A stretch of DNA of 32,000 nt from an uncultured Candidatus Saccharibacteria bacterium (GCA_964543385.1 CAZIYE010000001.1:270001-302000); one strand, 5' to 3'. Counted from the first letter of the stretch, positions 29 through 17,830 are shown. The notes: generated by a model not told the origin, from the sequence alone. A program made the numbers and translations.

Positions 29-59
29 GGCGAAACACCTATTTTAAAGGTGTTTCGCC
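29..59 (-). terminator. intrinsic terminator-like hairpin after ORF 66..371
   Basis: 12-bp stem GGCGAAACACCT/AGGTGTTTCGCC with a 7-nt loop, 6 nt past the stop. A T-rich run follows on the minus strand. Confidence 0.65.
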
Positions 60-65
60 GGCCAT

Positions 66-371
66 TCACCAAGCATAGTGAGCTCGTGTCCCCCTTTTTT
101 TATCTTGTCCCTTGCAAATAGCAAAGAGCTGACGTGCAAACAGGATTTCGATAGTCGAAAAATCTGTAAGCTGTGCGACTAAATCCTCTTGGCAAGTCGC
201 ACCATGATTGATCAAATTGATCACCTGTTGGGCCTTTTCGCCCAATAGAACGATCTGACCAACCGCATGAGGTCTTCTGGATTCTGGTAGCCCCATGATG
301 GAAGCCACAAGATCAGCAGTTGCATTATCAAGCATCGATGCTTCCCCTTCTCTGCTATCTGGTTCGGACAT
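66..371 (-). CDS. hypothetical protein, 101 aa, GC-rich orphan
   Basis: ORF in the GC-rich island. G-rich SD (GGGGGG) lies 7 nt before the ATG at 371 and a hairpin terminator lies downstream. No family recognised. Confidence 0.5.
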   Translation of the reverse strand: MSEPDSREGEASMLDNATADLVASIMGLPESRRPHAVGQIVLLGEKAQQVINLINHGATCQEDLVAQLTDFSTIEILFARQLFAICKGQDKKRGTRAHYAW

Positions 372-439
372 AAAATGTCCCCCCTTTTGTTTGATATACT
401 GAGATCCGATAGCTACCTATCCGATCTCTCCAGACAAAC

Positions 440-459
440 AAAAAACTGGCCCAAGCCAG
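440..459 (-). terminator. CTGGC-CCAA-GCCAG hairpin followed by T6 (minus strand)
   Basis: 5-bp GC stem. The A6 run at 440-445 on plus is the U-tract on minus. One of three related hairpins (see 972-994 and 1035-1057). Confidence 0.45.
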
Positions 460-600
460 CTATTTATTCACTATTATTAATTTATAATTCGACTACACAA
501 AAAATGCCGGCTTTACCAGATAATCAGATTGCCACCACCAATTTTGTGAATGATTAATCATTTCTAATATATTAACATAAGCGATAATAATTTAAAAAGT

Positions 601-629
601 GGGTGGGGCCGCTTATTAGGCGGCCACCC
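601..629 (-). terminator. GC-rich hairpin terminator after ORF 645..908
   Basis: GGGTGGGGCCGC / GCGGCCACCC stem with one bulge and loop TTATTA. TTTTT follows on the minus strand. Confidence 0.6.
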
Positions 630-644
630 GGTCGAAAGAATGTC

Positions 645-908
645 TTAATTGCATAATGCAATCCTCTGACATTCAAGATGATGGATTGGATAGTCCTTCA
701 TCAGAAAATAATAACGAGTTATCGCCTTGAGGCGCTCATTCAAGATGATGCCACACCGAGCAAATGCGTCAAAAGCATCACTTTCGCTTGATGCAGCAAG
801 AACAACTGGGGGTAAGAATTCTTTGGCTAATGCCATTAACTCTTTGCCGCTAATAACCGACCTATCCTTGGAAGAACGATCAGGACGGCAGAAATAGCTA
901 CTCATCAC
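645..908 (-). CDS. hypothetical protein, ~86-87 aa, GC-rich orphan
   Basis: CAAAGGAG SD lies 7 nt before the ATG at 903-905; the ORF track starts at GTG 906-908. Terminator hairpin 601-629 follows. No family recognised. Confidence 0.55.
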   Translation of the reverse strand: MMSSYFCRPDRSSKDRSVISGKELMALAKEFLPPVVLAASSESDAFDAFARCGIILNERLKAITRYYFLMKDYPIHHLECQRIALCN

Positions 909-971
909 ACAGCTCCTTTGGGGTTTTTGGTATTATACAGCGACTTGCATAAGCAAATCGCCATAAATAAC

Positions 972-994
972 AAAAAATCTGGCCTTTTGGCCAG
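972..994 (-). terminator. CTGGCC-TTTT-GGCCAG hairpin + T-run (minus)
   Basis: Perfect 6-bp GC stem. The A6 run at 972-977 on plus gives the U-tract on minus. Confidence 0.5.
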
Positions 995-1034
995 CTTTGT
1001 TAAATTTTTTTTATAACTTTATGAACTTTTAATT

Positions 1035-1057
1035 AAAAATTGCTGGCCTTTGGTCAG
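1035..1057 (-). terminator. CTGGCC-TTT-GGTCAG hairpin + T-run (minus)
   Basis: Third copy of the hairpin motif, with one G.U pair. The A5 run at 1035-1039 lies on plus. Confidence 0.4.
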
Positions 1058-1113
1058 ATGTAAAGTAAAAGTAAAACCAGTTTTTAGTAGTAATAATATT
1101 CATCGATATAATC

Positions 1114-1142
1114 AATCTAGCAAATCATCATTTTGATGTCAA
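1114..1142 (-). promoter_or_regulatory. candidate promoter TTGACA-17-TAGATT
   Basis: Minus-strand TTGACA (1142..1137), 17-nt spacer, TAGATT (1119..1114). It would drive a ~70-nt transcript ending at hairpin 1035-1057. Confidence 0.3.
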
Positions 1143-1159
1143 TTAAACAGCTTGGGTGA

Positions 1160-1197
1160 CGGGAGAGTGCTGTATACATGTTGCCAGCACTCTCCCC
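1160..1197 (-). terminator. 13-bp GC-rich stem-loop 4 nt after the stop of ORF 1202..1360
   Basis: CGGGAGAGTGCTG / CAGCACTCTCCCG with a 12-nt loop. There is no clear U-tract, so it may be a stabiliser or Rho-related rather than a classical terminator. Confidence 0.4.
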
Positions 1198-1201
1198 GAC
1201 C

Positions 1202-1360
1202 TTACATTTGAATTGTCGCCGGATCCTTTAGGCACTTGCCCTTAGGATGATGGCGACGGCACTTGGGACACCACACGGGGATGTCCACGCCATCAGATGG
1301 CGTTGAGGGGGGAATCCATGGTTGCCGCTTTCGCGGCATCTCAGAGGGGGTTGTCGGCAT
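1202..1360 (-). CDS. hypothetical Pro-rich, Cys-containing small protein, 52 aa (CPKCRRHHPKGKC)
   Basis: The ATG at 1358-1360 is preceded by GGAG at 7 nt, and that SD straddles the TGA stop of the upstream ORF (ttGGAGTGAaatcATG). The ORF ends right at hairpin 1160-1197. Confidence 0.4.
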   Translation of the reverse strand: MPTTPSEMPRKRQPWIPPSTPSDGVDIPVWCPKCRRHHPKGKCLKDPATIQM

Positions 1361-1364
1361 GATT

Positions 1365-1796
1365 TCACTCCAACTGATAAGAGGTGTAGCCCACCTCGGC
1401 GATACGGCGGGGAACGACGTCCCACGAGTTGGGACAGACAGTGCACTGGTAATGACCATTGCTGGTCATGATACCATTGTTCGCGCGACACTCAGTGCAG
1501 TACCTGTCGGTCAATCGGAACTTCTCACCATTTCCGATAGCATAGGCCGGGAAACGATGCCCGAAGATGTTGGGGAATACCGTTCCTCCGAAGAGACGGA
1601 CGTTGATGTGACCGTCACTGGTTTCTACGAAGGCGTCAGGGATGACCAGCATCCTGAGATGGCGATTGTGCATCCATGCATTAGTCATTACCAATTCCGG
1701 TATGTTAGGAAGACAGTCATTGAAACGCTCCCCAGAGCGAACGATGATCGAGCCGATCGGTTTGATACGGCTCTTAGGGCGGTGACGATTCGGCAT
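1365..1796 (-). CDS. hypothetical protein with C-terminal zinc-ribbon-like CxxC-x14-CxxC, 143 aa
   Basis: CAAAGGAG SD lies 7 nt before the ATG. Motif is CTEC...(14)...CTVC. GC-rich (line 1261-1320 counts 36/60 G+C). The overlapping plus-strand ORF 1263..1862 lacks SD and context. Confidence 0.55.
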   Translation of the reverse strand: MPNRHRPKSRIKPIGSIIVRSGERFNDCLPNIPELVMTNAWMHNRHLRMLVIPDAFVETSDGHINVRLFGGTVFPNIFGHRFPAYAIGNGEKFRLTDRYCTECRANNGIMTSNGHYQCTVCPNSWDVVPRRIAEVGYTSYQLE

Positions 1797-1893
1797 AACA
1801 GGACTCCTTTGTCAGGGGATTTGACGAACAAATTCGTCTATATGAGGTATATAGCAAAATAAGCAATAAATCAAGTTATGAGATAATTATTGC

Positions 1894-2420: not shown

Positions 2421-3287
2421 TTAACGCTGACAAACAGGACAGTAATGAGTACCTCGACCACCGACTGTTATCCTTTTTATGACATCATTGCATCCCCTTG
2501 GACAAAGCTCGCCAGTTCTATGGTAAACATTCAGATAATTTTGCATTCCGCCCTTTTTTCCATCTGCGTCGACATAATCACTATCAGTCGTGCCGCCATA
2601 TTTAATCGCTTTTTCCAGAATCATTATAGTTGATTTTATAATCTTTTCCCATTCATCCCGAACGATATCTTTGACTTTTCGCAGAGGAGAGATCATAGAA
2701 TCGAAGAGAATTTCATCAGCATAAATATTGCCTATTCCAGCAACAATAGCCTGATCCATCAAAAATTGTTTGATATTTTTGTTCGGCATCCTACCAGCTT
2801 TTCGAAAGAGATATTCTGCTGTAAATCCTTCAGAAAAAGGTTCTGGTCCATAACTTTCCGTAAAGATTCTATCTATTTCTTCTTTTGGCAAAAGCTTACA
2901 CCAACCAAACTTTCGCATATCATTAAAAAATAATTTTGACCCATCATTAAAATAAAATATCATTGCCGTCGTCGAATTTGGGAGTTTTGCATGCCAATTA
3001 TGATCGGGGTGGCCACCCGCGAACCGATCATCTGCAGCTTTCAACTCTTGCCTGTATATCAGCTGTCCTGTCATTTTGAGATGAAAAAGCAAATATTTAT
3101 TGTTTGATAATCCAAAAGCAATTATTTTTGCCCGACGTTCTATGCTGAAGATTTCACAACCAACCGCTTCTATCGCGCTGCCAAAAAAAGACTTGGGGAA
3201 TAAAATATCAATATCGACTATCTTCTTGCCGACAATTCTTTGGCTTAGTCCCCTTCTGATTGTCTCTACCTCTGGTAATTCTGGCAT
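2421..3287 (-). CDS. mutM: formamidopyrimidine-DNA glycosylase (Fpg/MutM)
   Basis: N-terminal MPELPEVET catalytic motif, H2TH region and C-terminal zinc finger CPRC...CPVCQ. Confidence 0.95.
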   Translation of the reverse strand: MPELPEVETIRRGLSQRIVGKKIVDIDILFPKSFFGSAIEAVGCEIFSIERRAKIIAFGLSNNKYLLFHLKMTGQLIYRQELKAADDRFAGGHPDHNWHAKLPNSTTAMIFYFNDGSKLFFNDMRKFGWCKLLPKEEIDRIFTESYGPEPFSEGFTAEYLFRKAGRMPNKNIKQFLMDQAIVAGIGNIYADEILFDSMISPLRKVKDIVRDEWEKIIKSTIMILEKAIKYGGTTDSDYVDADGKKGGMQNYLNVYHRTGELCPRGCNDVIKRITVGGRGTHYCPVCQR

Positions 3288-4013: not shown

Positions 4014-4042
4014 TTGACAAAATTATCACACTTATATAGTAT
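4014..4042 (+). promoter_or_regulatory. candidate promoter TTGACA-17-TAGTAT upstream of padR
   Basis: TTGACA at 4014-4019, 17-nt spacer, TAGTAT at 4037-4042. The same -10 hexamer recurs at the 16S and tRNA-Ile promoters. Confidence 0.45.
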
Positions 4043-4166
4043 AAAGATACTAAGACGAGCGAGGGAATGCTCATTTTTTAATTTATATATTTTGAAATTT
4101 ATTCATTTATTGATAAATTGCCAAATAATAAAATGGATGAATGGATAAATAACACGGAGTGTCGCT

Positions 4167-4511
4167 ATGGATTTGACAAGAGAAGGATACTGGCGAAAAT
4201 TGATAAATCAGGGTTTGATCAAATTCTTTTTGCTCAAAGTTTTATATAAAGATAAAGAGAGCTACGGTTATAGAATTGTCAAAAGAATAGAAGAATTATC
4301 AGACGGAACATGCCGACCGACCGAATCAACAATTTATCCTGCTCTAGAACAGCTAAGAAAAGACGGCTATGCGATTACCAGAGAGGTCTCTGCTGGCGCT
4401 AGAAAAAGAATAATTTATTCACTTACAGAATCTGGCAGAGCTGCATACAGAGCTGCTGCGAAATCCTATGGTGAAATAATACCATTACTGAGAGAATCTA
4501 TACTTCTCTAA
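4167..4511 (+). CDS. PadR-family transcriptional regulator
   Basis: Winged-helix signature YGYRIVKRIEE...STIYPALEQLRKDGYI...Y.LTE.G. Confidence 0.9.
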   Translation: MDLTREGYWRKLINQGLIKFFLLKVLYKDKESYGYRIVKRIEELSDGTCRPTESTIYPALEQLRKDGYAITREVSAGARKRIIYSLTESGRAAYRAAAKSYGEIIPLLRESILL

Positions 4512-5236: not shown

Positions 5237-5279
5237 AGGGGAATTTTACCATACAAAAAAGCCAATTTATACTCTAAGT

Positions 5280-5395
<116 letters not shown>

Positions 5396-5595
5396 ACTTA
5401 ACTTACAAATTGGCTTTGTTTTGAAAGAATGCCTTTCAAATGGAGTAAGATTAAAGAGAATCTTACCCCCATTTGAAAATCAACATGAGCTCGATCCAGC
5501 ATGCCAGCATCGCCCCTCATCCTTTCGCAAAGAAAGGATGAGCGAGTCGTGCCAACACAAAGGTATCTTAAACGCTCGACAATTACTGGAATAAT

Positions 5596-5614
5596 CCAGA
5601 AATTACTAGTCAAG

Positions 5615-5629
<15 letters not shown>
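5596..5629 (-). promoter_or_regulatory. 23S trailer half of the processing stem
   Basis: 5596-5614 is the exact reverse complement (19/19) of 8525-8543. 5614-5629 pairs with 8434-8450 in a helix-1-like stem. Confidence 0.75.
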
Positions 5630-8433
<2,804 letters not shown>

Positions 8434-8445
<12 letters not shown>

Positions 8446-8543
8446 TTTTCTTTAGAGGTCGAATAATTGGAGACAAGATTTCTTATTGCTAAGAAGTTCT
8501 GTCCCCACTACCCGACATAAATATCTTGACTAGTAATTTCTGG
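8434..8543 (-). promoter_or_regulatory. 23S leader half of the processing stem (two pairing blocks separated by 74 nt)
   Basis: 8525-8543 pairs 19/19 with 5596-5614, and 8434-8450 pairs with 5614-5629. Confidence 0.7.
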
Positions 8544-8896
8544 ATTCGTATAAATACGAATGAAATTACTATTTGAGAAATTTTTATTATCGGAAGATAA
8601 CTCTTAAATGAAATTACATTATTATAATTACTCGTTATAATTATCTTTTGTGTGCTTGCATAGAGATCAATAAATGATCTTGCAGGTATATACAAACACT
8701 ATGAAATTGTTAAGGTTCAGGGCAAAAAATGCAATTTATGAAACTTTTGCCTCATAGTTACATTTTTGTCAAATATAATGGATATTTTGACCAAAAAATC
8801 AATAAGCAGATATTTGTCCCGCGTATGCTGGGATAGTTTACCCGCAACCCCCCTGTGTAGTGTGAAATAAGTTCTAACTTTTACTTACTAAAAGAG

Positions 8897-8926
8897 AATG
8901 TATCATATTTAAATTACTATTGTCAA
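8897..8926 (-). promoter_or_regulatory. candidate 23S-5S promoter TTGACA-18-TACATT
   Basis: This is the only minus-strand TTGACA with a usable -10 between the 23S leader and the divergent plus-strand gene. The -10 is weak. Confidence 0.3.
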
Positions 8927-8953
8927 CACTTTTTACATGACCACTTTCTAAGA

Positions 8954-8982
8954 TTGACAATTTAGCGTTTTTTACTTAAAAT
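8954..8982 (+). promoter_or_regulatory. promoter TTGACA-17-TAAAAT for gene 9015..9479
   Basis: Consensus -35, 17-nt spacer, good -10. GGAGG SD at 8998-9002. Confidence 0.6.
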
Positions 8983-9014
8983 ATCCCCAGTTCGAGTGGA
9001 GGTTTATCCAGAAA

Positions 9015-9479
9015 ATGCGCAACGAGATCGTCATCGACATCGATGGAACACTCACCCTACCACGAATCGGAGATTTTGAGAGATTCCTTACTCCATTTCA
9101 GTCACCTCTTGTGGCAGCCGGTCTTGCTCCGGAAATTGGGTTGTATTTTTACAACTTGAAGCCAAACATGAAGATGATCGAATGGATAAAAAATATTCCA
9201 GCAGACTATAGCATAACTATGTTGACCGGACGCTACAATGCGTTTGATTACATAACGCGCAGATGGCTGTTGAAATATGGTATTCTCTTCAATTCTCTGG
9301 TCTTTACGCCTTTTGGCGAAAAAGATATCCAGTTCAAGATCGAATATGCGCGCGCCCACGAAAGTCGGATAGCGCTCATGATCGATAATATGAGACACAT
9401 CAGAGACGGTGTTGCCGAGATAATCGGCGATCGTTCCGTCCTCTGGACTGATCTCACCCTTTCCCCCGCTGCTCTGTAA
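9015..9479 (+). CDS. HAD-like hydrolase/phosphatase, 154 aa
   Basis: DxDGT motif in IDIDGTLT, then MLTGR and MIDN motifs. One of only two plus-strand units. GC-richer than neighbours (9361-9420 counts 28/60). Confidence 0.7.
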   Translation: MRNEIVIDIDGTLTLPRIGDFERFLTPFQSPLVAAGLAPEIGLYFYNLKPNMKMIEWIKNIPADYSITMLTGRYNAFDYITRRWLLKYGILFNSLVFTPFGEKDIQFKIEYARAHESRIALMIDNMRHIRDGVAEIIGDRSVLWTDLTLSPAAL

Positions 9480-9498
9480 AGACCAGCGGGATTTCTTT
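9465..9498 (+). terminator. hairpin CCCGCTG/CAGCGGG + T-rich tail overlapping the stop codon
   Basis: 7-bp GC stem (9465-9471 / 9484-9490) followed by ATTTCTTT. Confidence 0.5.
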
Positions 9499-9524
9499 AT
9501 CCAAGAGAAATCTATTCGATAAGA

Positions 9525-9968
9525 TTATCGAACTAAAAAATAAACAAATATTAAAGTAACTAATTGAGTAGCGATGCCCCATATGAGGTTAGGCTTGACT
9601 GTTGAATGTATTTTTTCATGAAACATAAAAAGCTTACTTCCGAGATAGCTTTTTCGAAACTTTTTGCTCCAAAAAGGCACATTATCGAAGATATCTGGCA
9701 GCAATCCGCCAAAAGCACCCCACAGAAAAGTACTGGATAAGGATATTTCTGGTTTCAAAAGTAATATTAACAAAATAGTAAGAATTAAATCAGAACCAGT
9801 GAATACCCACTGCTTCCATGTCCATTTTCCATCCTCTAACACATTATCGAAGTGAGGGATTGCATCGAGGATATAATGAAGAATAATTCCGGAAGCAAAT
9901 GCTAGATAGGGATCACCTATGCTTTCGCCGATCAGGCCACCAGATATTATATGAGCAGTAGTAATCAT
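9525..9968 (-). CDS. small polytopic membrane protein (possibly YdjM/DUF457-like metal-dependent hydrolase)
   Basis: Several hydrophobic segments. The HYILDAIPH motif recalls DUF457 from memory only. Confidence 0.55.
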   Translation of the reverse strand: MITTAHIISGGLIGESIGDPYLAFASGIILHYILDAIPHFDNVLEDGKWTWKQWVFTGSDLILTILLILLLKPEISLSSTFLWGAFGGLLPDIFDNVPFWSKKFRKSYLGSKLFMFHEKIHSTVKPNLIWGIATQLVTLIFVYFLVR

Positions 9969-9973
9969 ATAGT

Positions 9974-10657
9974 TTAATTTCCGCCAAAGCGCCTTTGCCG
10001 CTTACCAAATTCCTCGACCGCCTTATCAAACTCTTTGGGAGAGAAGTCAGGCCAATGTACCTCTGGAAAATAGAATTCCGAATAAGCTGATTGCCAAAGT
10101 AGAAAACCAGAGAGGCGTTGCTCCCCAGAAGTACGAACAATCAAGTCCGGATCAGAAATGCCAGAACTATCTAGATTATCAGATATATTCTCTATTGTTA
10201 TCGGCATTTTATTTTCGACTATTTTCTCAACTGCCCTTTTAATCTCGTCTTTTCCCGTATAGTTAAGAGCAAGTTGAACCACCATACCAGTATTGTTTTT
10301 GGTCTTTTCTACTGCCCTGACTATTGTCTCGGCCAACTTCTTTGGCAAACCAGTAATATCTCCAAGATGACTCAATTTCATATTTTTGCCGTGCAGATCG
10401 TCGAGATATTCTTTTACAAAGTTTGTAAATATATCCATCAAATAATCGACTTCTTCCTTTGCTCTATTCCAATTCTCCTTAGAAAAACAATACATAGTCA
10501 CCGCCTCTAGTCCTTGGCTAGCAGCATAGTCTATGATCTCTTTGGCTCTTTTGAAACCAGCATTGTGACCCTGAAGAGTAGTGACTCCATTCACTTTAGC
10601 CCAACGTCTATTACCATCCAATATAAAACCAATATGTTTTGGAACTAAATTGCTCAT
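9974..10657 (-). CDS. uppS: undecaprenyl-diphosphate synthase (cis-prenyltransferase)
   Basis: HIGFILDGNRRWA and RTSGEQRLSGFLLWQSAYSEFYF motifs. Confidence 0.95.
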   Translation of the reverse strand: MSNLVPKHIGFILDGNRRWAKVNGVTTLQGHNAGFKRAKEIIDYAASQGLEAVTMYCFSKENWNRAKEEVDYLMDIFTNFVKEYLDDLHGKNMKLSHLGDITGLPKKLAETIVRAVEKTKNNTGMVVQLALNYTGKDEIKRAVEKIVENKMPITIENISDNLDSSGISDPDLIVRTSGEQRLSGFLLWQSAYSEFYFPEVHWPDFSPKEFDKAVEEFGKRQRRFGGN

Positions 10658-10692
10658 AATTCTAATTTATTTATTTTCATTAAACGGTAGTT

Positions 10693-10721
10693 ATAATACG
10701 TCATTTATAATAAATATTCAA
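10693..10721 (-). promoter_or_regulatory. candidate uppS promoter TTGAAT-17-TATTAT
   Basis: Hexamers at 10721..10716 and 10698..10693 on the minus strand, about 35 nt upstream of the ATG. Confidence 0.45.
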
Positions 10722-10952
10722 CCAATGACGAATTCTTGAATATATTATTAGAGAACAATGTGACCTGATTATTTTGTCGAAGCGTATGTTGAAAGAGTCA
10801 GAAATATTATTTTGAAGAACAATAAGTTTATTTATATACCAACTTTATTCAATGAACTCAAATCAGACAATTCAAAATATTGATTACTGAAGCAACCGGA
10901 CAAAACCCTAGTCCCAAGTGATTTTTTAATTGAGAGTATTTTTTCTATAATC

Positions 10953-12452
10953 TCAATTTTTACTCTTTAAAATAAATTCAACATTTGGCACGACAGTACC
11001 TTGATAATTAATAGTAACCACTTTTTGTGTGCTATCTGCTGGCATGTAAACCGGGTTCTGTGGCTCGACAGCTGATGATGTCCATGTGTATCCATTTCTT
11101 TGCCAATTAACTAAATTCATTGTAAGAAATTTAGGTAATACTGATAATAATTCCTGTGCAACTTGATTTTTGATCGTCTTGGCATATTCCTGGGCAAAAA
11201 ATTTCGAAGCACTATTTATTTGATCCTGAATCGCAACTAACTCGCTCTGTCCAAGAAGAAGTTGCTGCTTAGCATCAACAATCGCTTGATTGACAGAAGT
11301 TAAATTTAGATCACTTAAGCTTACAGCTCTCCTTGTCCCGGTGATATTTGTCGGGAGTTTATTTGTAATCTCGTCGATGGAGCTCCCGCTTGCATTGATC
11401 GCCTTGATCAAATCATTTTTACTTGTTGCAACAGCTGATGCTGATCTCGAAACAGGTTGACTGGCTAAAATCTTCGATAGCAAAGTTTCCTTAAACAATC
11501 CCAGTTTAATATCATCAGAGCCGATACTATTGGCATTTGTATTATCATTAATTAACTTGGACAAATAGATATTCGTGTTATCGTTTTGAACAATATTACC
11601 AAAGACTTGAGTATTCGCTAAAATTGTTGATGCATAATCATTTATAAGGGAGTTTTTGACCTCATCAATCGTTGTGTTATTTTTACTAAGCAATGTAGAG
11701 AAATTAACAATATCGGCCTTTGTTAACTTTATAGGAATCTGATTTGCGCTATTTAAAGTCGCTAAAGTATAGTTAGCAAACCCATCAGCCATCGACGTTC
11801 CGCCTAATTCACTAACTAAATCGATCAAATGTTTTTTCTTATCTGGATCAATTTCACAATTATGAAGAGTATTTGTTGTTACAGAACCAACCGTAAAATC
11901 ATCTTTGATCTTGGATTGACAATTTTTAAACCTAGTAATTTCTTCTCGAATAGGGCTATCACTCACACCACCTAGTGCGCTAACACTGTAATAATCCGAC
12001 GCAAACTTCAACAATTTAGTAGTCAGATTATTGAACTTAACTTCTCTTGGAGACATCAAAAATATCGCGTTTTTGTCTGTACTGTCATAATATGAATACG
12101 TCTGGTCTTTATTTTGGCATTTTGAAACTTTAAATATAAGCTTTACAGTCCAACAATCTCTAGAATAACCGTAGTTGGTCACTTTTACTGGGATGTAACC
12201 GCTAATAGCTGTCCCCCTAAGCGTATTAGTGGCGCCACGATTATCCGATGCCGTTCTTCTATTAGCGGCTGGTAACTTATTAGGCAAACCCGTAATCGGT
12301 TTTTGTAATGTAAATTGGATTTTGGTTGAATTTTGAGAACCATTTGTATCTGCCGAAACACCTCTTTTCAACATTGATCTCATCGCTAAAGTACCAACAG
12401 TACCAGAAAACAATAGCCAAGCTACTGCTATAATAACCATTCTTTTCGGCAT
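10953..12452 (-). CDS. signal-anchored secreted hypothetical protein, 499 aa, Asn/Ser/Thr-rich
   Basis: N-terminal MPKRMVIIAVAWLLFSGTVGTLA hydrophobic segment. GAGG SD. No recognisable domain. Confidence 0.8.
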   Translation of the reverse strand: MPKRMVIIAVAWLLFSGTVGTLAMRSMLKRGVSADTNGSQNSTKIQFTLQKPITGLPNKLPAANRRTASDNRGATNTLRGTAISGYIPVKVTNYGYSRDCWTVKLIFKVSKCQNKDQTYSYYDSTDKNAIFLMSPREVKFNNLTTKLLKFASDYYSVSALGGVSDSPIREEITRFKNCQSKIKDDFTVGSVTTNTLHNCEIDPDKKKHLIDLVSELGGTSMADGFANYTLATLNSANQIPIKLTKADIVNFSTLLSKNNTTIDEVKNSLINDYASTILANTQVFGNIVQNDNTNIYLSKLINDNTNANSIGSDDIKLGLFKETLLSKILASQPVSRSASAVATSKNDLIKAINASGSSIDEITNKLPTNITGTRRAVSLSDLNLTSVNQAIVDAKQQLLLGQSELVAIQDQINSASKFFAQEYAKTIKNQVAQELLSVLPKFLTMNLVNWQRNGYTWTSSAVEPQNPVYMPADSTQKVVTINYQGTVVPNVEFILKSKN

Positions 12453-12518
12453 CTCAACCTCATTTATAATTAATTAGTTTTATCATATTATAAACCAATA
12501 CACAAAACATGAAAATAC

Positions 12519-12625
12519 TTAGGGGGCGTGTGCGTTTCGGATATTAGAGGAACTCAAAAAACCACGATCACTCCCCTTTTCCCAACCACTTCCCTGTTCA
12601 AATACCCTCTGAAATTCCCCAAGAA
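12519..12625 (-). other. GC-rich strand-asymmetric segment with five G-tracts on the minus strand
   Basis: G3-4 tracts on minus at 12617-20, 12605-07, 12592-94, 12581-83 and 12573-76. CTTAGGGGG (12519-27) can pair with TTCCCCAAG (12616-24). It lies between a terminator and the 499-aa gene. Confidence 0.25.
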
Positions 12626-12658
12626 AAAAGCACCACTTTCGTGATGCTTTTTTCTTGG
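12619..12658. terminator. long bidirectional terminator hairpin
   Basis: CCAAGAAAAAAGCACCAC tttc GTGATGCTTTTTTCTTGG. Core is AGCACCAC/GTGATGCT, flanked by A6 and T6. Confidence 0.75.
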
Positions 12659-12732
12659 TGGAACACGCTCCAACAAGTCGGTAATATAATACTAAATGAC
12701 AAAGCAATGATCTATATTCCGAAGATGAGAAT
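12655..12732 (-). repeat. 78-nt repeat copy E1 (3' UTR of ORF 12777..13034)
   Basis: 57/78 ungapped identity with 13146-13223. Invariant blocks are TTGGTGGAAC, TATAATACTA and ATGAGAAT (plus-strand reading). Confidence 0.7.
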
Positions 12733-12776
12733 AAGAGAGTTCTTGTAAAGAACATACTACTTATTGAAGTATACGG

Positions 12777-13034
12777 TTAAAGCTTTAAGTTGCCAACAAT
12801 CAGAGCAAGGATAAATAGAATCTCGGCTATGAACCCTATCACTGAAAAAACAATACCAAATATCGCCATTGTCTTCTTTGCGGTCTTCATTCCGCGAATA
12901 GAATAAACCAACCCTGTAACAGATAACAGGATACCAACCGGGCCCAACAAAAAAGAGACTAACCCCATCAGACCAAAGAGTAATCCCCACTCAGAATCGT
13001 ATTGACCACCCTTATTTTTTGTTTTGTTTACCAT
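12777..13034 (-). CDS. small two-TM membrane protein, 85 aa (DUF4190-like pattern)
   Basis: GLLFGLMGLVSFLLGPVGILLSVTGLVYSIRG...AIFGIVFSVIGFI. Chosen over the overlapping frame 12757..12990. Confidence 0.6.
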   Translation of the reverse strand: MVNKTKNKGGQYDSEWGLLFGLMGLVSFLLGPVGILLSVTGLVYSIRGMKTAKKTMAIFGIVFSVIGFIAEILFILALIVGNLKL

Positions 13035-13115
13035 AACTACTCTTTTTTACTTATATTTTAATAGTATCAAACCAAACAATTTTATTAAAGTCCTAACACT
13101 ATCTTCGGGTATAAT

Positions 13116-13136
13116 AAAAAAACTAGTCTGGGACTA
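13116..13136 (-). terminator. weak hairpin TAGTC-tgg-GACTA with A7/T-rich flanks
   Basis: 5-bp stem only. It occupies the same position relative to E2 as the strong terminators do behind E1 and tRNA-Ala. Confidence 0.3.
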
Positions 13137-13145
13137 ATCTTCTTA

Positions 13146-13223
13146 TTGGTGGAACGCACTATTGCGAGTCAGAAATATAATACTAAACAGTGAAGAACAG
13201 ATTTATACTCCAAAAATGAGAAT
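13146..13223 (-). repeat. 78-nt repeat copy E2 (3' UTR of ORF 13228..13503)
   Basis: See E1. It begins 4 nt after the TAA stop at 13228-13230. Confidence 0.7.
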
Positions 13224-13227
13224 TAAA

Positions 13228-13503
13228 TTATTTAGTTGATCTTCTCTTTTCGAATAGTAGGCTAACCAGAACTACGATTCCAACACCGATCACCCACCAG
13301 ATTAGAATATCGGTCATCAAGTATAAATAATTTACTGATATTTGCCTTCCATCCATCGGAGTGTCCGGGATGAATTTTATTGGATAACCGCTACCGTTAC
13401 CTCTTCCAATAACGATCCCTTCTTTATTCGATGCAGAGCCAGACGTTACAATAAAAATAATTAGTCCAACAAAAAAGCCATAAATTATCTTGTTCAGCTT
13501 TAT
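13228..13503 (-). CDS. small membrane protein, ~91 aa, no canonical start codon (putative ATA start)
   Basis: A 94-codon open frame runs from TAG to TAA. AAGGAGG (13515..13509) is followed by tcatt then ATA (13503..13501). There are N-terminal and C-terminal hydrophobic helices. The ORF is absent from the ATG/GTG/TTG ORF track. Confidence 0.45.
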   Translation of the reverse strand: MKLNKIIYGFFVGLIIFIVTSGSASNKEGIVIGRGNGSGYPIKFIPDTPMDGRQISVNYLYLMTDILIWWVIGVGIVVLVSLLFEKRRSTK

Positions 13504-13585
13504 AATGACCTCCTTTTTTAACTATTATACTATTCATAGTCCAAGCCAACAATAGCACCACATAAAGGCGATTTAGTTGAGTAAA

Positions 13586-13620
13586 TTAAAAATTATCTAG
13601 TATTAAACTAGATAATTTTT
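13586..13620 (-). terminator. terminator after tRNA-Ala
   Basis: AATTATCTAGT attaa ACTAGATAATT (11 bp), flanked by A5 and T5. Confidence 0.8.
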
Positions 13621-13622
13621 AT

Positions 13623-13698
13623 TGGTGGACCCTAGGGGATTCGAACTCCTGACCTCCTCAGTGCAAATGAGGCGCTCTACCAACTAAGCTAAGGGCCC
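13623..13698 (-). tRNA. tRNA-Ala (anticodon UGC), CCA encoded
   Basis: Cloverleaf read by hand: acceptor GGGCCCT/AGGGTCC with the G3:U70 Ala identity pair, anticodon loop TTTGCAC, T-loop TTCGAAT. Confidence 0.9.
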
Positions 13699-13723
13699 AT
13701 AAACTGTAAAATGGACTATAAGT

Positions 13724-13752
13724 ATAGTACTACAAATCACAGTTTTTTTCAA
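13724..13752 (-). promoter_or_regulatory. tRNA-Ala promoter TTGAAA-17-TACTAT
   Basis: Hexamers at 13752..13747 and 13729..13724. The tRNA 5' end lies 25 nt downstream of the -10. Confidence 0.55.
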
Positions 13753-13759
13753 GATATGT

Positions 13760-14200
13760 TTAATTCGGACTATAAAGACTTGGTTCTCTCGGTTCTGTCT
13801 CTTCGCCCCCTTTGTTTGTTTTTGCGATCAGTTCGTCAGAGATAGCCCGCTCCTCCGGTGTCATGTTTTTTGCCCTCTCTCTTAACTCGCCGACATCAAC
13901 TGGCGGAAATTGAGGTGTATTCTCTCTATATTCTTTCAGCGCTTCTTCCATGCCATCCATAGCCAAAAAATCCACTTCCGATAAGCCGTCTTCTCCGTCG
14001 CTGCCCCGTTTTAAACCACGACCAGCGATCTCTTTCATCACCGAATCTGTGAAGTCTGAGGGTAGTGGCGGGACTAGCAAGTCTGGTATCATTGCTTTTG
14101 CTACTTCAACGACTCGATCATCCTCATCAACCTCTGGAAGAGATTTTAATCCGTGAAAATCCCCATTATCGTCAGATATTTGTTCTTCGTCCTGATCCAT
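13760..14200 (-). CDS. highly acidic hypothetical protein, 146 aa, GC-richer than its surroundings
   Basis: GGGAG SD 5 nt before the ATG. D/E-rich throughout. Line 13981-14040 counts 31/60 G+C. Confidence 0.7.
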   Translation of the reverse strand: MDQDEEQISDDNGDFHGLKSLPEVDEDDRVVEVAKAMIPDLLVPPLPSDFTDSVMKEIAGRGLKRGSDGEDGLSEVDFLAMDGMEEALKEYRENTPQFPPVDVGELRERAKNMTPEERAISDELIAKTNKGGEETEPREPSLYSPN

Positions 14201-14208
14201 AATTCTCC

Positions 14209-14403
14209 CTAGAAATTAAATAATGCGTAGAAACCAAAAATAATAAAGCCGACACCAGCGATCTTCCAAAATATATATGTACCTGTCGGTCCCCATAGCT
14301 TATCAGCAAAATCAATACGGGTAACGTTGTCCGCCAACCACTTACTATAACGAATACTAACAAATCCCCCTATTATTCCTCCGACAAACCATAACCAATT
14401 CAT
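14209..14403 (-). CDS. small two-TM membrane protein, 64 aa
   Basis: WFVGGIIGGFV and IAGVGFIIFGFYALF hydrophobic segments. Tightly packed between the pilin-like operon and the acidic protein gene. Confidence 0.6.
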   Translation of the reverse strand: MNWLWFVGGIIGGFVSIRYSKWLADNVTRIDFADKLWGPTGTYIFWKIAGVGFIIFGFYALFNF

Positions 14404-14434
14404 AAAAATCCATTCATTTAATTAATTACTTATT

Positions 14435-15778
14435 TTATTCTTGTCGCCAATTTAAAACAGTATAATTTCCAGTAGTAGGAAACTGAGGTGGCGGTGAAAG
14501 TGTCAGATAGGGATCATAGGTCTGATTTGTTGACCTATATCCGCTAGTCACCGTCGTTCCACTTACCCAGCTCCAAGTCCACGTCAAATTTGATGCGATA
14601 GAGCCATAAACCGAGATACTGTCTTTAACATAACCATTCGCCTGCGGAAACCACACGTGACCTTTTTGTGCAAGCAATGCAGCATTTATTTCAAGATCAT
14701 TAGCAGCATAAGATGGAACGACAATATCTCCTTGAGATATAAGTCCGATACTGGCAGTACCGTCTTTAGCAGAATAAAGCAGATTATCTTTTATGGCAAT
14801 TTTAGCCGTCTGATTACCATGAGAAGACTCTGCTGCAATTGTTATTTTCCCATTATAAGTTCCATCTACCCATACATTATCGCTAACATATACGATACCA
14901 TTTTCTGGCAGATCATGAGTCGAGAGAAGACTCGTTGTTATACCTGTGTTTCTCTCTCTGGTTACCTTGTGGACCTCAATATTTGAATTATTCAATTTCA
15001 GATAATACCCCAGACTATTAGAAGGATCTAAATAAATACCATCCTGCTGAGCTTCAATCTTAATATTATTCAGATCAACAGAGACTCGGTTAAAATCTAC
15101 TGGCGGTACAGGAAAAACCCAAAACCCTATTGGTCCCCCATTACCCCAAACTCCATCATGATATTGCCCGTCTCCGCCAAAGTTATTTGACGGCTTATAA
15201 GTTTTCGAAGAGGAAGAGATAATTCCGTTACCCACACCATCAAAATGAACTCCGATATTAGAATGAACAGGACCGTTCGTCGCTTCGTCTGACCCAAACC
15301 AACATTCAGTATTTGTGACAAAAGAATATCGAGCAAATGATGGCATTCCGATATCTGCAACTACCACACTTTCTGATTTGGCATTTTGAAGCTTACCAAT
15401 TGATTTTACTTTTACAACCGCTTCCCCTTGGAGCGGTGGCGTAATATAAAGACTGTAAGTGCCGATAACCTCACCCTTGAAATTCTTATATTCATGAGTA
15501 AAAGGGCCAAATGATGGGCCGCTACCGCATGAACCACCATCACAGTAATCAGTATTGTCATGAGAAAGATGCCACATATAATAATTCACACCAGCCTCGG
15601 CAACTTCAAGCGATGAAATCACTTTTTCATGATATGCTGCCCTCTTTACATTGGCCATTGCTATTCCCACCAAAGCAGATGCGAATGCAATAAACAAAAC
15701 AGACGCAAGAAGTATCCCAGGCAGATAGGAACCTTTTCTATATTTACAAAATCTAATTTTTTTAAAGATAGTCATCAT
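14435..15778 (-). CDS. PilX-N-like type IV pilus minor component, 447 aa
   Basis: N-terminal KGSYLPGILLASVLFIAFASALVG anchor followed by EVAEAGVNYYMWHL, a PilX_N-like pattern. ATGA overlap with the upstream pilin gene. Confidence 0.7.
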   Translation of the reverse strand: MMTIFKKIRFCKYRKGSYLPGILLASVLFIAFASALVGIAMANVKRAAYHEKVISSLEVAEAGVNYYMWHLSHDNTDYCDGGSCGSGPSFGPFTHEYKNFKGEVIGTYSLYITPPLQGEAVVKVKSIGKLQNAKSESVVVADIGMPSFARYSFVTNTECWFGSDEATNGPVHSNIGVHFDGVGNGIISSSSKTYKPSNNFGGDGQYHDGVWGNGGPIGFWVFPVPPVDFNRVSVDLNNIKIEAQQDGIYLDPSNSLGYYLKLNNSNIEVHKVTRERNTGITTSLLSTHDLPENGIVYVSDNVWVDGTYNGKITIAAESSHGNQTAKIAIKDNLLYSAKDGTASIGLISQGDIVVPSYAANDLEINAALLAQKGHVWFPQANGYVKDSISVYGSIASNLTWTWSWVSGTTVTSGYRSTNQTYDPYLTLSPPPQFPTTGNYTVLNWRQE

Positions 15779-16359
15779 AAATTATTTTTTAGGTTTCTCA
15801 ATTGTACAGCTGTCGATTGCTCTGCAGACTCAGGGGATGCATTAATATCATTATCAATTTCTATCGACATCTTTATTAATCTTACAACATCATTTTGAAT
15901 TGGAAACTCTAGTTCGCTATTAGCATCATTATAATACTTGAACAAATTTACAGAAATCACATTTTCGGCAATCTTTTTGATTTCTTTTTGAGAATCCGGA
16001 TAAATAAAAGTATTTTCTGCAATTATAGGAGAAATGCTATAACGATATAGACTGTTGCCATCTAAATAATAGCTAATTTTACTCGGCGCGGGATTAGTAT
16101 CCCCTTTCAAATACGAATAAAAAGTTAAATTATTGGAATTAGCCGATATAATTGCTGTTGTGCCCCTAGACATCTTTTCAAAATCCCTAGCAGCTATCGC
16201 CGCTTGTTCATTTAAAGCAATGCGCTTTGTTCCGAGACGATATTGCTTGTTTCCACTGGTATAAAGGGATGCTATTATTAAGCCCAAGATACCGACTAAC
16301 ACTACAGTTACTATCATCTCCATAAGAGAAAAACCATTTTTTTTATCTGTCATTGTCAT
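15775..16359 (-). CDS. prepilin-type N-terminal cleavage/methylation domain protein (minor pilin/pseudopilin)
   Basis: Class III signal KKNG|FSLMEMIVTVVLVGILGLI, with Glu at +5. Confidence 0.85.
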   Translation of the reverse strand: MTMTDKKNGFSLMEMIVTVVLVGILGLIIASLYTSGNKQYRLGTKRIALNEQAAIAARDFEKMSRGTTAIISANSNNLTFYSYLKGDTNPAPSKISYYLDGNSLYRYSISPIIAENTFIYPDSQKEIKKIAENVISVNLFKYYNDANSELEFPIQNDVVRLIKMSIEIDNDINASPESAEQSTAVQLRNLKNNL

Positions 16360-16361
16360 AT

Positions 16362-17738
16362 TTAAGGATTTATTATATTGAAACCGTTTGCTTGGGATAC
16401 AAATTCGCCATTAATATTAGTAACAACGATGTGATAAAGTCCAGCTTCTGTACCAACAAGATTGAAATCTGCCACTATCTGATTATGTTGAGAAACCTCA
16501 ATATTTGTACCGATTATTTCAGCGCCCGTACTACTGTTCACAATCTTTATGTTTGCGCCATTATCAAAATTATTTCCATCAACCGTTATTGAAATATTAT
16601 CGCCAACTGTTCCATTAGAAGGTAATGAATTATAAATAACAGGATTAGAACCAGAAGAAGAAAGCGTAGCCAAGACAACTAAATTTACCTCCGGAGTCAG
16701 TCTTATTGGTTGAGCAGGTGAGGTAGATATTAGATTCATTTCTGAAACATTCTTTATTTTATAGTCATCAAACTCAAGATTTGGAATTCTAATATATCCC
16801 TGAGCGTCAGTTGTGAATATTTGTGAATATTTGAAAGTGTCTGGATTATTGTAAATCATCTTACTGCCCTCTAACGTAAAGCCAATGTTTGGGACGGGAC
16901 TTCCAGATTGATCCCTAAATGTTATTTCCATAACTGAAAGTTTATCTATTACTAAAGTAACGCCAGTAACCTGTTGTACGATAATATCCACATCCGGCTC
17001 TAGAGCATTAGGATTTTGTGATGTCCTAGGATAAGTCTGCGAAGTTGAATACCCATTCTTAGTAACAACAATATGATAATTATTATGTTGATCTGGCGGT
17101 AACTTTGGAATTAAAAGACAGCCATCATCTCCCGTAGTCATTGAAATATCAATCTGCGGAACCAAAACAAGGTTTTCTACACGCACATCAGCACCAGATA
17201 CAGGATTACCCAAATTATCAATTACACAAAAGTTTAATATTCCCGTATCGCTTGGGGTTTCAGCAGCCTTTGCAGAAACGTTTGTCACAAGTTTTGCAAG
17301 CTGACTATTCCTGCCTTTCTTGCCGACCGTTATCTCTACTTTTTTATAATCATATGGATAAAGGTCTTGTGGTTTCCCGGCAATATTGCCAGCTGCGTTA
17401 CCATCAAAAGGATCATCAACATAGCTAATTACTGTATGCACGTTAAAAGCAGTGCCGTTTCTATTTACGGACTCGTCATCAAGAATGTTACCCTGTGGGT
17501 ATATCGATCCATGTTGTGTTGATAGATCATCATAGGGCATATTGCGAATCATTTCCATTCGCTCATTTGACAAGGTCACCGCCACCATCTTTGCTTTTGC
17601 CAAGTTTATCGATTTAAAGGCAGCTGCATATCCAGAGACTATAGCGACTGCCACCATCGAAACAATCATAAAATCGATCAACACTTCGATGAGCGTAAAT
17701 CCCTGTTTCGTTTTTAGATCTTTACTGGAAAATATTAT
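16362..17738 (-). CDS. large PilV-like prepilin with beta-sandwich (carboxypeptidase-regulatory-like) repeats, ~458 aa. True start lies upstream of the ORF-track GTG.
   Basis: In-frame KTKQG|FTLIEVLI lies at 17702-17671, upstream of GTG 17684. No ATG/GTG/TTG occurs between the TAA at 17778-17780 and the motif. AGGAGGGG (17749..17742) is followed by ATA ATA (17738..17733). Confidence 0.75.
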   Translation of the reverse strand: MIFSSKDLKTKQGFTLIEVLIDFMIVSMVAVAIVSGYAAAFKSINLAKAKMVAVTLSNERMEMIRNMPYDDLSTQHGSIYPQGNILDDESVNRNGTAFNVHTVISYVDDPFDGNAAGNIAGKPQDLYPYDYKKVEITVGKKGRNSQLAKLVTNVSAKAAETPSDTGILNFCVIDNLGNPVSGADVRVENLVLVPQIDISMTTGDDGCLLIPKLPPDQHNNYHIVVTKNGYSTSQTYPRTSQNPNALEPDVDIIVQQVTGVTLVIDKLSVMEITFRDQSGSPVPNIGFTLEGSKMIYNNPDTFKYSQIFTTDAQGYIRIPNLEFDDYKIKNVSEMNLISTSPAQPIRLTPEVNLVVLATLSSSGSNPVIYNSLPSNGTVGDNISITVDGNNFDNGANIKIVNSSTGAEIIGTNIEVSQHNQIVADFNLVGTEAGLYHIVVTNINGEFVSQANGFNIINP

Positions 17739-17791
17739 TAGCCCCTCCTGACTAATATTAAAGTATTCAAGGTTATTTTATCACGAATGAA

Positions 17792-17801
17792 TAGCACATA
17801 G
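17792..17801. repeat. 10-bp direct repeat TAGCACATAG, left copy
   Basis: The identical 10-mer recurs at 18413-18422. Together they bracket the GC-rich ORF and its hairpin. Confidence 0.5.
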
Positions 17802-17830
17802 AAGCACTAATATATAGAAAATAATTTTGG

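Follow-up and report, generated by a model that had tools for sequence, protein, structure and literature searches.

Two putative leader-peptide attenuators and a GC-rich operon of small orphan proteins in a conserved chromosomal slot of an uncultured Candidatus Saccharibacteria bacterium

Introduction

How should a short stretch of orphan genes and hairpins between housekeeping genes be read, as foreign DNA left by a phage or as regulated genes of the chromosome? This question is raised by the first ~1.9 kb of a 32,000-nucleotide stretch of DNA (hereafter the window; G000:C1:270001-302000, corresponding to GCA_964543385.1 CAZIYE010000001.1:270001-302000) from an uncultured Candidatus Saccharibacteria bacterium, the genome of which (G000) comprises 0.90 Mb in four contigs with 38.4% G+C (GC). 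Four open reading frames (ORFs) of 101, 87, 52, and 143 amino acids (aa) had been described there on the minus strand, and all of them are present, at 66-371, 645-908, 1202-1360, and 1365-1796, respectively. An original prediction made from the sequence alone took them for four orphan cassettes in one GC-rich island, each with its own Shine-Dalgarno sequence (SD), ORF, and hairpin, and resembling the "morons" of phages. In this study, we found that this supposed island is a composite of one operon and two attenuator-led genes. The stretch 1-1900 consists of three minus-strand transcription units: a GC-rich operon encoding the 143- and 52-aa proteins, and two attenuator-led units, one carrying the 87-aa and the other the 101-aa ORF. 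All features of this stretch described below lie on the minus strand, and their coordinates are counted from the first nucleotide of the window.

From textbooks, leader-peptide attenuation is known as a control of genes for amino-acid biosynthesis or tRNA charging in free-living bacteria. Here, the switch is leaderless, is conserved across an order of ultra-small, presumably auxotrophic bacteria of the candidate phyla radiation (CPR), and stands ahead of tiny orphan genes in a hypervariable slot. The slot probably holds a horizontally acquired zinc-protein operon together with two ribosome-mediated attenuator units that gate orphan genes.

Results and discussion

The hairpins listed in the original prediction were only those that follow genes; a further four hairpins and two conserved micro-ORFs, which had been overlooked and which belong to two leaders, are located in the spacers ahead of the 87- and 101-aa ORFs. 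Leader 1 begins with a promoter at 1114-1142 (TTGACA-17 nt-TAGATT, with a TG before the -10 box), which is the best promoter match of the region (10/12) and is conserved in relatives, where the ATG lies 6-10 nucleotides (nt) past the -10 box. The ATG of leader peptide 1 (MNIITTKNWFYFYFTSDQRPAIFN, 1029-1103) follows 10 nt after the -10 box; it has no SD, its mRNA would be leaderless or nearly so, and its codon run W-F-Y-F-Y-F lies at 1079-1062. Segment 1 (CTGACC, 1057-1052) and segment 2 (AGGCCAGCA, 1049-1041), both recognized by duplex energy and covariation, together span 1041-1057. Segment 2 pairs with segment 1 (or with the AACTGGTTT codons) or, alternatively, with segment 3 (AAGCTGGCC, 997-989), and the 2:3 duplex has an energy of -15.2 kcal/mol, which was reached by 0/200 shuffles. 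Segment 3 and terminator 1 (stem 994-979, U-run 978-971) occupy 971-997, the terminator folding at -10 to -11 kcal/mol before the tail ATTTTTTG. Next comes a third hairpin of 10 bp (939-962; -14.7 kcal/mol), found at the same place but with a different sequence in relatives, and then an A-rich stretch with the SD of the 87-aa gene. Counted from the ATG, the aromatic codons lie at +24 to +41, segment 1 at +46 to +51, segment 2 at +54 to +62, the stop codon at +72, and segment 3 at +106 to +114, and the U-tract starts at +126.

Leader 2 has the same parts. A weak promoter-like site lies at 569-596 (TTTAAA-16 nt-TAATAT), and 7 nt after its -10 box is the ATG of leader peptide 2 (MINHSQNWWWQSDYLVKPAFFV, 493-561), which also lacks an SD and contains three consecutive Trp codons (540-532). 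Segment 2 (AGCCGGCA, 512-505), segment 3 (ATAGCTGGC, 463-455), and terminator 2 (stem 461-444, U-run 443-438) lie within 438-512, with a 2:3 duplex of -11.2 kcal/mol (matched by 1% of shuffles), a terminator of -8.6 kcal/mol, and a fold z-score of -3.7. The third hairpin of leader 2 (401-430; -15.5 kcal/mol) is followed by the SD GGGGGG (384-379). Both leader ORFs are within 22-24 codons, and both terminator stems end in T5-6. Thus, the hairpin density of the stretch is accounted for by two attenuators, with three to four hairpins each, and by the terminators at gene ends.

The leaders are part of a conserved family. In an alignment of the window with L005, a 3.8-kb contig of one related lineage, the best conserved stretch is not a gene but the spacer that starts where the 52-aa gene ends and includes 1197-965, with 81-84% identity, as compared to 70-75% for Fpg, 52-62% for the 143-aa gene, and a near-random level for the 87-aa region. 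By a DNA search, many genomes of the family were found to share the region from ~1113 to 961, and its design in these relatives is constant: a sigma-70-type promoter, an ATG a few bases past the -10 box, and an ORF of 21-24 codons with the core (K/Q)-N-W-F-(F/Y)-F-Y-F, followed by a weak hairpin at the 3' end of the ORF, an AT-rich spacer, a strong hairpin with a U-tract, the third hairpin, an A-rich stretch, an SD, and a small ORF. The frame of the micro-ORF is kept across indels and even across a 54-nt in-frame insertion (in G022). A covariance model of the leader family, R1, found one copy in 20/44 genomes of the order and also matched seven genomes from three other families of the class. 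Leader 2 is the second, weaker R1 copy of this genome (386-566, directly before the 101-aa ORF; E 0.009 genome-wide, 0.00065 among loci). Promoter-like hexamers with an ATG 5-10 nt past the -10 box are present in 21/24 instances, the distance being exactly 7 nt in 16/24, and none of the 24 has an SD before the leader ATG. Considering this short distance and the lack of an SD, the leader mRNAs should be leaderless.

The DNA motif AAAAMYTGGTTTTWCTTTT, searched on genome contigs, is of low complexity and gave chance matches in many phyla, so it was useful only as a control for the specificity of R1. On the 80 loci fetched with this motif, R1 gave 2 weak matches, on Bacteroidales and Chitinophaga contigs (L060, 721-885, and L107, 6188-6283; ~34.5 bits, E 0.007), and these may be unrelated aromatic leaders or chance. 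A generic scan of the genome for a promoter, short ORF, terminator, and antiterminator returned the two leaders of the window and one further candidate only. This third candidate (G000:C1:223243-223800) is located 47 kb left of the window and has a promoter-like site TTGACA-17-TAATAT, a leaderless micro-ORF with an Ile/Asn run (MKNYRNTINININHPSAANY, at C1:223292), a terminator CACCGCC...GGCGG with a U-tract, a third hairpin, and an SD (AAGGAG) before a 110-aa orphan ORF (GC 0.45). Integron cassettes and repetitive extragenic palindromic (REP)-like repeats were considered for the CTGGCC...GGCCAG hairpins and were rejected because of the fixed order within a conserved leader, the U-tracts, and the absence of an integrase.

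The sensed codons differ between copies of the leader. The runs are WFFFYF, WWW, WW, LALLLLLL, LLALALL, and IITIIISIII, and this change of the amino-acid class between copies, with the RNA design remaining constant, is the signature of leader-peptide attenuators. The single copy in G003 is a Leu-run leader (MINKYLQNLALLLLLLHSSGGDFVLR; L032, G003:C5, 1501-2050 in element orientation) with a 12-bp antiterminator, and it precedes the gene for a 115-aa stand-alone LeuA allosteric (dimerisation) domain protein (PF08502, 55.8 bits, E 6e-15). Tandem second leaders were observed upstream of the aromatic leader at two loci, one with an Ile-rich peptide (MNLNLTSIITIIISIIIPLLAVAF; L031 of G026, 1040-1208) and one with a Leu-rich peptide (MKYKNLLALALLTSHKGGSF; L026 of G040, 921-1098); the ORF after each of them is GC-rich, encodes ~90 aa, and has no family.

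Could the conserved peptide itself, rather than its codons, be what is sensed? Ribosome-mediated attenuation of resistance genes is known from Term-seq studies, and the leaders might accordingly be ribosome-arrest sensors of a drug or metabolite in the style of erm, cat, or ABC-F leaders, with NWFFFYF stalling the ribosome together with a ligand. The conservation of the peptide beyond the codon run and the non-biosynthetic cargo would agree with such a sensor. However, the WWW, Leu-run, and Ile-run variants keep the RNA design but not the peptide, which fits codon sensing rather than one arrest motif; the link between the Leu leader and the LeuA-domain protein also fits codon sensing, and the cargo resembles no resistance family. 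We thus regard arrest sensing as very improbable and retain attenuation by codon sensing.

The alternative pairings of the RNA are conserved as well. All 24 instances have a segment at +46 to +73 from the ATG which is complementary to a stretch made up of the terminator's 5' arm and a few bases preceding it, and which, in 24/24, adjoins or overlaps the leader stop codon. The resulting 2:3 duplexes have energies of -9 to -17 kcal/mol, usually stronger than the terminator, and are matched by <=5% of shuffles. In the model-based (R1) alignment of 22 sequences, 92% of the cells of the antiterminator are paired, with 17 double-change cells (0/500 shuffles; slid controls 11-51%), and one antiterminator pair outside the terminator stem occurs as CG, UA, AU, GC, and GU, that is, as five pair types. 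The terminator is paired in 96% of cells, and the protector hairpin plus the terminator in 95%, with double changes at 7/11 pairs. In three sequences, a G to A change in segment 2 is accompanied by a C to U change in segment 3, while the G of segment 4 is retained as a wobble partner; this joint change, with segment 4 unchanged, speaks for selection on the 2:3 pairing itself. Distant members (G003, G023, G024, G026, and G038) have very different segment sequences that are nevertheless mutually complementary. Both pairings covary across the family; this covariation, the conserved architecture, and the codon-run variants are what the sequences show directly.

This covariation also bears on the possibility that the leaders are stand-alone genes, encoding a small aromatic peptide or a ~130-nt small RNA that acts in trans, with the downstream ORFs expressed separately. 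The N-W-F-x-F-Y-F core and the RNA are indeed far better conserved than the cargo, both leaders have strong terminators, and there is a precedent in Sinorhizobium, where the leader peptide peTrpL and the attenuator RNA rnTrpL are described with functions in trans (PMC7298713, PMC7968998). Yet the gap of only about 60-90 nt that separates the terminator from the cargo's SD contains no promoter match of its own; the antiterminator covaries outside the terminator stem too, which a simple terminator would not need; and the codon runs switch amino-acid class in paralogues, with the Leu leader preceding a LeuA allosteric-domain protein. Separate expression of leader and cargo thus appears quite unlikely, albeit a role in trans and attenuation are compatible rather than exclusive.

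By attenuation, leader translation, ribosome stalling, and read-through, as we infer them from sequence, would be connected as follows. When charged Phe-, Tyr-, or Trp-tRNA is plentiful, the ribosome would reach the leader stop codon and cover segment 2, so that the 3:4 terminator would form and transcription would end before the gene. A ribosome stalled in the codon run would instead cover segment 1 and leave segment 2 free, and free segment 2 would form the 2:3 antiterminator, allowing the orphan gene to be transcribed. If the leader is not translated at all, pairing 1:2 and then 3:4 would again lead to termination.

With a promoter, a codon run, an intrinsic terminator, and an alternative antiterminator, the window leaders have the sequence parts of the leader-peptide attenuator class (trpL, pheL, leuL, and aroR). 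Aromatic attenuators of this class include E. coli trpL-trpEDCBA, pheL-pheA, and the pheST leader, as well as C. glutamicum aroR-aroF with its Phe-Tyr-Phe leader (PMC11802643). The window leaders have in common with them a short ORF with the sensed codons, four segments, and a U-tract terminator before the gene. Unlike the classical attenuators, however, they have no SD, with the ATG about 7 nt past the -10 box; they carry a third hairpin between the terminator and the SD; their host is a CPR bacterium with a tiny genome; and their cargo consists of small, fast-evolving orphans instead of biosynthetic enzymes or aminoacyl-tRNA synthetases. The leader peptide of E. coli pheST presumably looks much like MNIITTKNWFFFYFTSD. 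Against Rfam, searched in E-value mode, the top match was Phe_leader (RF01859), over the full model length (969-1092, minus strand), with 22.1 bits and E = 1; since 22 bits compare with a gathering threshold of 55, this indicates resemblance to Phe_leader and not membership. Full-text literature searches returned no paper on Patescibacteria or the candidate phyla radiation that treats leader peptides or attenuation.

The cargo of attenuator 1 is the 87-aa ORF (645-908; 86 aa from the ATG at 905), which has the SD GGAG 7 nt before its ATG and is followed by a terminator hairpin (601-629; -16.3 kcal/mol) with the tail ACTTTTTAAATT. A relative of 83 aa is encoded behind the same leader in genus g7 (E 4.5e-11, 32% identity), and a weak one in g8. 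The original prediction had noted Cys pairs in three of the four proteins; of the four Cys of the 87-aa protein, only Cys6 aligns with a Cys in the G007 relative. A second cargo group, with no demonstrable relationship to the 87-aa protein, is found in G002, G019, and weakly in G015. A single family uniting the cargo of aromatic leaders through a shared N-terminal Y-F-V/C was considered and rejected, as the hhalign probability between subfamilies was 0.1.

The cargo of attenuator 2 is the 101-aa ORF (66-371; GC by codon position 0.58/0.42/0.40), after which comes a 12-bp terminator hairpin with a T-rich tail (29-59; -20.1 kcal/mol). Only copies with 99-100% identity were found for this protein, in two other assemblies; these copies show that the order of 87-aa gene, leader 2, 101-aa gene, and nucleotidyltransferase gene is not an assembly artefact. 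A single-sequence AlphaFold2 model is four-helix with modest confidence (predicted local distance difference test, pLDDT, 62.8), and Foldseek found no fold match for it in the PDB (best E 1.2).

Given such cargo, one may ask if the 101-aa frame is open only by chance, within spacer DNA of moderately raised GC content; the same could apply, with less likelihood, to the 87-aa frame. The restriction of the 101-aa homologues to nearly identical copies and the absence of a family or fold match would be expected in this case. Nonetheless, the 101-aa ORF has a strong SD at the right distance, a terminator past its stop codon, and codon-position GC in the order GC1 > GC2 > GC3 (first, second, and third positions); an attenuator lies directly upstream, of the same design as before ORFs in 20+ genomes; and the 87-aa ORF has the homologue in g7. 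A chance frame is thus very unlikely, and we take both ORFs as attenuator-led genes.

For the four proteins, searches of Pfam, PHROGs, NCBIfam, and PADLOC gave nothing significant, in line with the earlier statement that they have no recognizable family; a PDB sequence search with the window proteins gave nothing below E = 0.3, and a word-index homologue search returned self copies only. Across genomes, the ORFs behind the leaders are very diverse, encode 55-142 aa (once 444 aa), and are mostly GC-enriched (0.39-0.59). F/Y/W/I/N/K are less frequent in the cargo proteins than in the proteome (20% vs 32%), which may be a cause, or a mere consequence, of the GC content of the cargo.

If read-through answers the supply of Phe, Tyr, or Trp, the orphan proteins would be a response to amino-acid shortage, i.e., to the state of the host or community, and this would provide a concrete handle on the opaque "dark matter" genes of CPR bacteria. 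We may go further and speculate that this auxotrophic class of CPR bacteria keeps a fast-changing locus in which leaderless single-amino-acid attenuators (aromatic, Trp, Leu, and Ile) gate GC-rich micro-proteins low in Phe, Tyr, Ile, Asn, and Lys, as a starvation-triggered set of effectors or sensors aimed at the host or at their own metabolism, such as stand-alone amino-acid-binding domains (for example, the LeuA allosteric domain). In this scenario, attenuation would report amino acids supplied by the host instead of biosynthesis, and the GC content of the cargo would be selected because it remains translatable when amino acids with AT-rich codons are scarce. We consider this broader scenario unlikely as a whole.

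The third transcription unit differs from the attenuator-led genes in composition. The region 1202-1796 has 54.1% GC as compared to 38.3 +/- 3.7% for the genome, with GC3 of 0.60-0.65 against 0.34 +/- 0.06 in the long ORFs of the genome. It had been stated that the composition shifts from the window start; in fact, 1-1000 has only 41.9% GC, about 1 standard deviation (sd) over the genome mean, and the 87- and 101-aa genes (43-47% GC) are not compositional outliers. The count on which the statement was based is correct (36/60 G+C in the line 1261-1320), and this value is reached in only 3/452 non-rRNA 60-nt lines of the window, but the outlier is confined to 1202-1796.

This region encodes the 143-aa protein (1365-1796; GC 53%, GC3 0.65) and the Pro-rich 52-aa micro-protein (1202-1360), and it has an upstream region of its own. 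The SD GGAG of the 52-aa gene sits in the last codons of the 143-aa ORF (GGAG TGA AATC ATG), the stop codon of which falls between this SD and the ATG of the 52-aa ORF, so that the two ORFs are translationally coupled. The same signal of GGAG, 7 nt, and ATG is common to the 143-, 52-, and 87-aa ORFs, as reported; the description of autonomous cassettes holds for the modularity of the units, but the 143- and 52-aa genes form one coupled operon. The 143-aa protein has a basic N-terminus, a predicted beta-rich middle, and a C-terminal zinc ribbon CxxC-x14-CxxC, and the motif CPKCRRHHPKGKC of the 52-aa protein is a Cys/His, zinc-knuckle-like CxxC-HH-C. Here the Cys pairs are kept: the four Cys of the zinc ribbon are invariant in the two-member comparison, and CPKCRRHHPKGKC is identical at the C-terminus of the 52-aa homologue on L005. 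In Pfam, the 143-aa protein gives only a weak match to A2L_zn_ribbon (PF08792, E 0.14, below threshold). The CxxC-x(n)-CxxC of its C-terminus is like that of small zinc-ribbon proteins (PF08792 and similar); unlike in these, the 95-residue N-terminal domain matches nothing, and no described counterpart was found for the coupled 52-aa CxxC-HH-C partner. The pair may bind nucleic acid or protein via zinc, which is a guess from the sequence motifs. A toxin-antitoxin pair was also considered; PADLOC and Pfam give no support for it.

Are these two ORFs real genes? When 1.84 billion representative proteins were searched exhaustively with a profile, the 143-aa protein turned out to have a single relative (P0001, 141 aa, 49% identical). 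Its locus is L005, which encodes, in order, HAD, Fpg, an intact CYTH protein, the 141-aa protein, and a 49-aa protein, followed by the hairpin, promoter, and leader; this synteny is that of the window, and the local GC rise, to 52-53%, is also present there. Between the window and L005, the proportion of synonymous differences (pS) is about 0.8, i.e., saturated. The proportion of nonsynonymous differences (pN) is 0.35 vs a pS of 0.80 for the 143-aa gene and 0.10 vs 0.72 for the 52-aa gene, which is thereby more constrained than fpg (pN 0.18). Within the 143-aa gene, the first, second, and third codon positions of the sense frame show differences of 0.39/0.30/0.66, the third being the most variable, and the alignment score is 318 for the sense ORF vs 84 for the overlapping antisense ORF. 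The low pN relative to pS and the codon-position pattern indicate that both ORFs are real genes under purifying selection. The zinc-protein pair is a clean, selected two-member family without known relatives, and a candidate for structural and biochemical work.

A 12-bp perfect hairpin lies 3' of the 52-aa gene (1160-1197; -24.9 kcal/mol). Its stem is identical on L005, where only two loop bases differ, despite the saturated synonymous sites in the neighbouring genes. All three gene-end hairpins of the original prediction (29-59, 601-629, and 1160-1197) do fold stably, but this one has no U-tract and so is not a canonical terminator; the end or a stabiliser of the operon transcript, or a protein-binding site, are candidate roles.

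The distribution of the operon is patchy. A search of 60 relatives did not find the 143-aa protein, not even in the same-genus genome, in which fpg directly adjoins the leader promoter with no operon between them. For the 52-aa protein, the other 161 genomes of the class gave one borderline match (E 0.008) and nothing else. No relatives of the operon were found in JGI metagenome contigs, GTDB species genomes, IMG/VR, INPHARED phages, or PLSDB plasmids (143-aa alignment; tblastn for phages and plasmids). The simplest reading of these comparisons is that the operon was gained horizontally by a common ancestor of this genome and one related lineage; it is kept by selection. In place of the operon, just upstream of the leader promoter, one other locus (L019 of G010, 1109-1390 in element orientation) has a different 56% GC, 93-aa ORF with CPVC and CFCC motifs and a strong hairpin.

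Alternatively, the operon could be native, an old pair lost elsewhere, with a GC content that comes from amino-acid content or from selection on the mRNA. This would explain why it is syntenic in the only relative having it despite saturated synonymous sites, and why no donor or mobility trace was found; besides, GC-enriched small ORFs occupy the same slot in several other genera. On L005, GC3 of the 143-aa homologue is only 0.44 while GC1 and GC2 are still high, which fits slow amelioration but also a native, lineage-restricted gene pair. On the other hand, a GC3 of 0.65 is about 5 sd over background, the operon is missing at the expected place in the same-genus genome, and ~17 other GC-rich patches of the genome, some of them encoding ordinary enzyme families, look like repeated import. 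We consider a native origin doubtful, albeit well worth keeping in mind, and prefer horizontal acquisition.

Several points weigh against the overall picture of an acquired operon beside two gating attenuators. Segments 2 and 4 have nearly the same sequence, and the similarity of the two hairpins by itself accounts for part of the 2:3 complementarity. The core N-W-F-x-F-Y-F of the peptide is conserved beyond the need of a codon run, and a different role of the peptide or the RNA is conceivable. The 87- and 101-aa cargo, both orphans, show no connection to aromatic amino acids, unlike the cargo of every textbook attenuator. For the operon, no integrase, tRNA, flanking repeats, or insertion scar and no donor lineage were found; loss in other lineages is an alternative to acquisition; and the AlphaFold2 model of the 143-aa protein, built together with its single homologue, was unusable (pLDDT 40).

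The surroundings of the stretch are those of a chromosome. It had been suggested that the island may extend past the window edge; however, a GlmU-like nucleotidyltransferase gene starts 40 nt left of position 1, and beyond it are recO, large deacetylase, glycosyltransferase, and glyS genes. On the right are a CYTH remnant (1900-2368), fpg (2421-3287), and a HAD gene. With housekeeping genes on both sides, ~1.9 kb apart, the stretch does not continue past the window edge. The order of Fpg, leader, small ORF(s), and GlmU-like gene recurs in many genera, and the two outer genes enclose a conserved slot, syntenic across a Berkelbacteria-like order of the CPR, the cargo of which changes fast.

In this setting, a phage moron or prophage remnant, i.e., four independent promoter-gene-terminator cassettes carried in by a phage, is largely refuted. 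What the window units share with phage morons and small genomic islets is their small size with their own start and stop signals (a start signal and a hairpin per unit), their orphan products, and, for one of them, deviant composition (1202-1796) and patchy distribution. Unlike morons, they have no prophage context, mobility genes, or phage homologues: housekeeping genes lie on both sides, the 15 kb upstream contain neither an integrase nor a phage gene, searches for a tRNA or for direct repeats at the borders gave nothing, the four ORFs have no significant PHROG match, and INPHARED, IMG/VR, and plasmids gave none. Moreover, two of the units belong to a leader family kept in chromosomes across the order at the same locus. 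We therefore judge a phage origin highly improbable. Among the marks of a genomic islet, deviant composition is restricted to 1202-1796, patchy distribution is present, and a donor or mobility signature is absent. Horizontal acquisition, proposed originally for all four genes, thus remains probable for the 143+52 operon with its deviant composition and patchy occurrence, but not for the 87- and 101-aa genes, which have ordinary composition and lie in a conserved regulated locus. Conserved synteny without compositional contrast had been named as a sign against a foreign island; synteny is indeed conserved in part, whereas the contrast of the 143+52 operon is kept in the relative. These results also hold a warning for annotation, in that GC-rich orphan patches in such genomes are not automatically phage debris and spacers filled with "terminators" may be regulatory leaders.

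The decayed CYTH gene next to the stretch, as previously noted, is a pseudogene (1900-2368) with two frameshifts and two in-frame stops, adjoining the GC-rich operon on its right. By tblastn with the intact 158-aa CYTH protein of L005 as query, it aligns at 90% identity over 118 aa, a piece that includes one in-frame stop; two more pieces lie in other frames, one of them containing the second in-frame stop. At the DNA level, its identity to L005 is 80-84%, exceeding that of the adjacent fpg (70-75%), while the HAD gene has only about 50% and a PadR region (4014-4192) 90-94%. With these uneven identities, the locus is a mosaic.

Farther along the window (5279-24411), the rRNA genes keep the order 16S, tRNA-Ile, tRNA-Ala, 23S, and 5S, and are spread over 19 kb with protein genes interspersed. 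Among the protein genes that separate the 16S and 23S rRNA genes is a 171-aa orphan ORF with 53% GC (17886-18401, minus strand).

Besides the rRNA genes, the genome contains ~17 further short GC-rich patches (49-61% GC), for example at C1:156301-157600, 168201-170800, 242601-243800, 369101-371600, 420401-423200, 441501-442900, and 543801-544900. Some of them encode nitronate monooxygenase, orotidine monophosphate (OMP) decarboxylase, or a protein with a weak amidase_3 match (below the Pfam cut-off), and several others encode secreted or membrane orphans.

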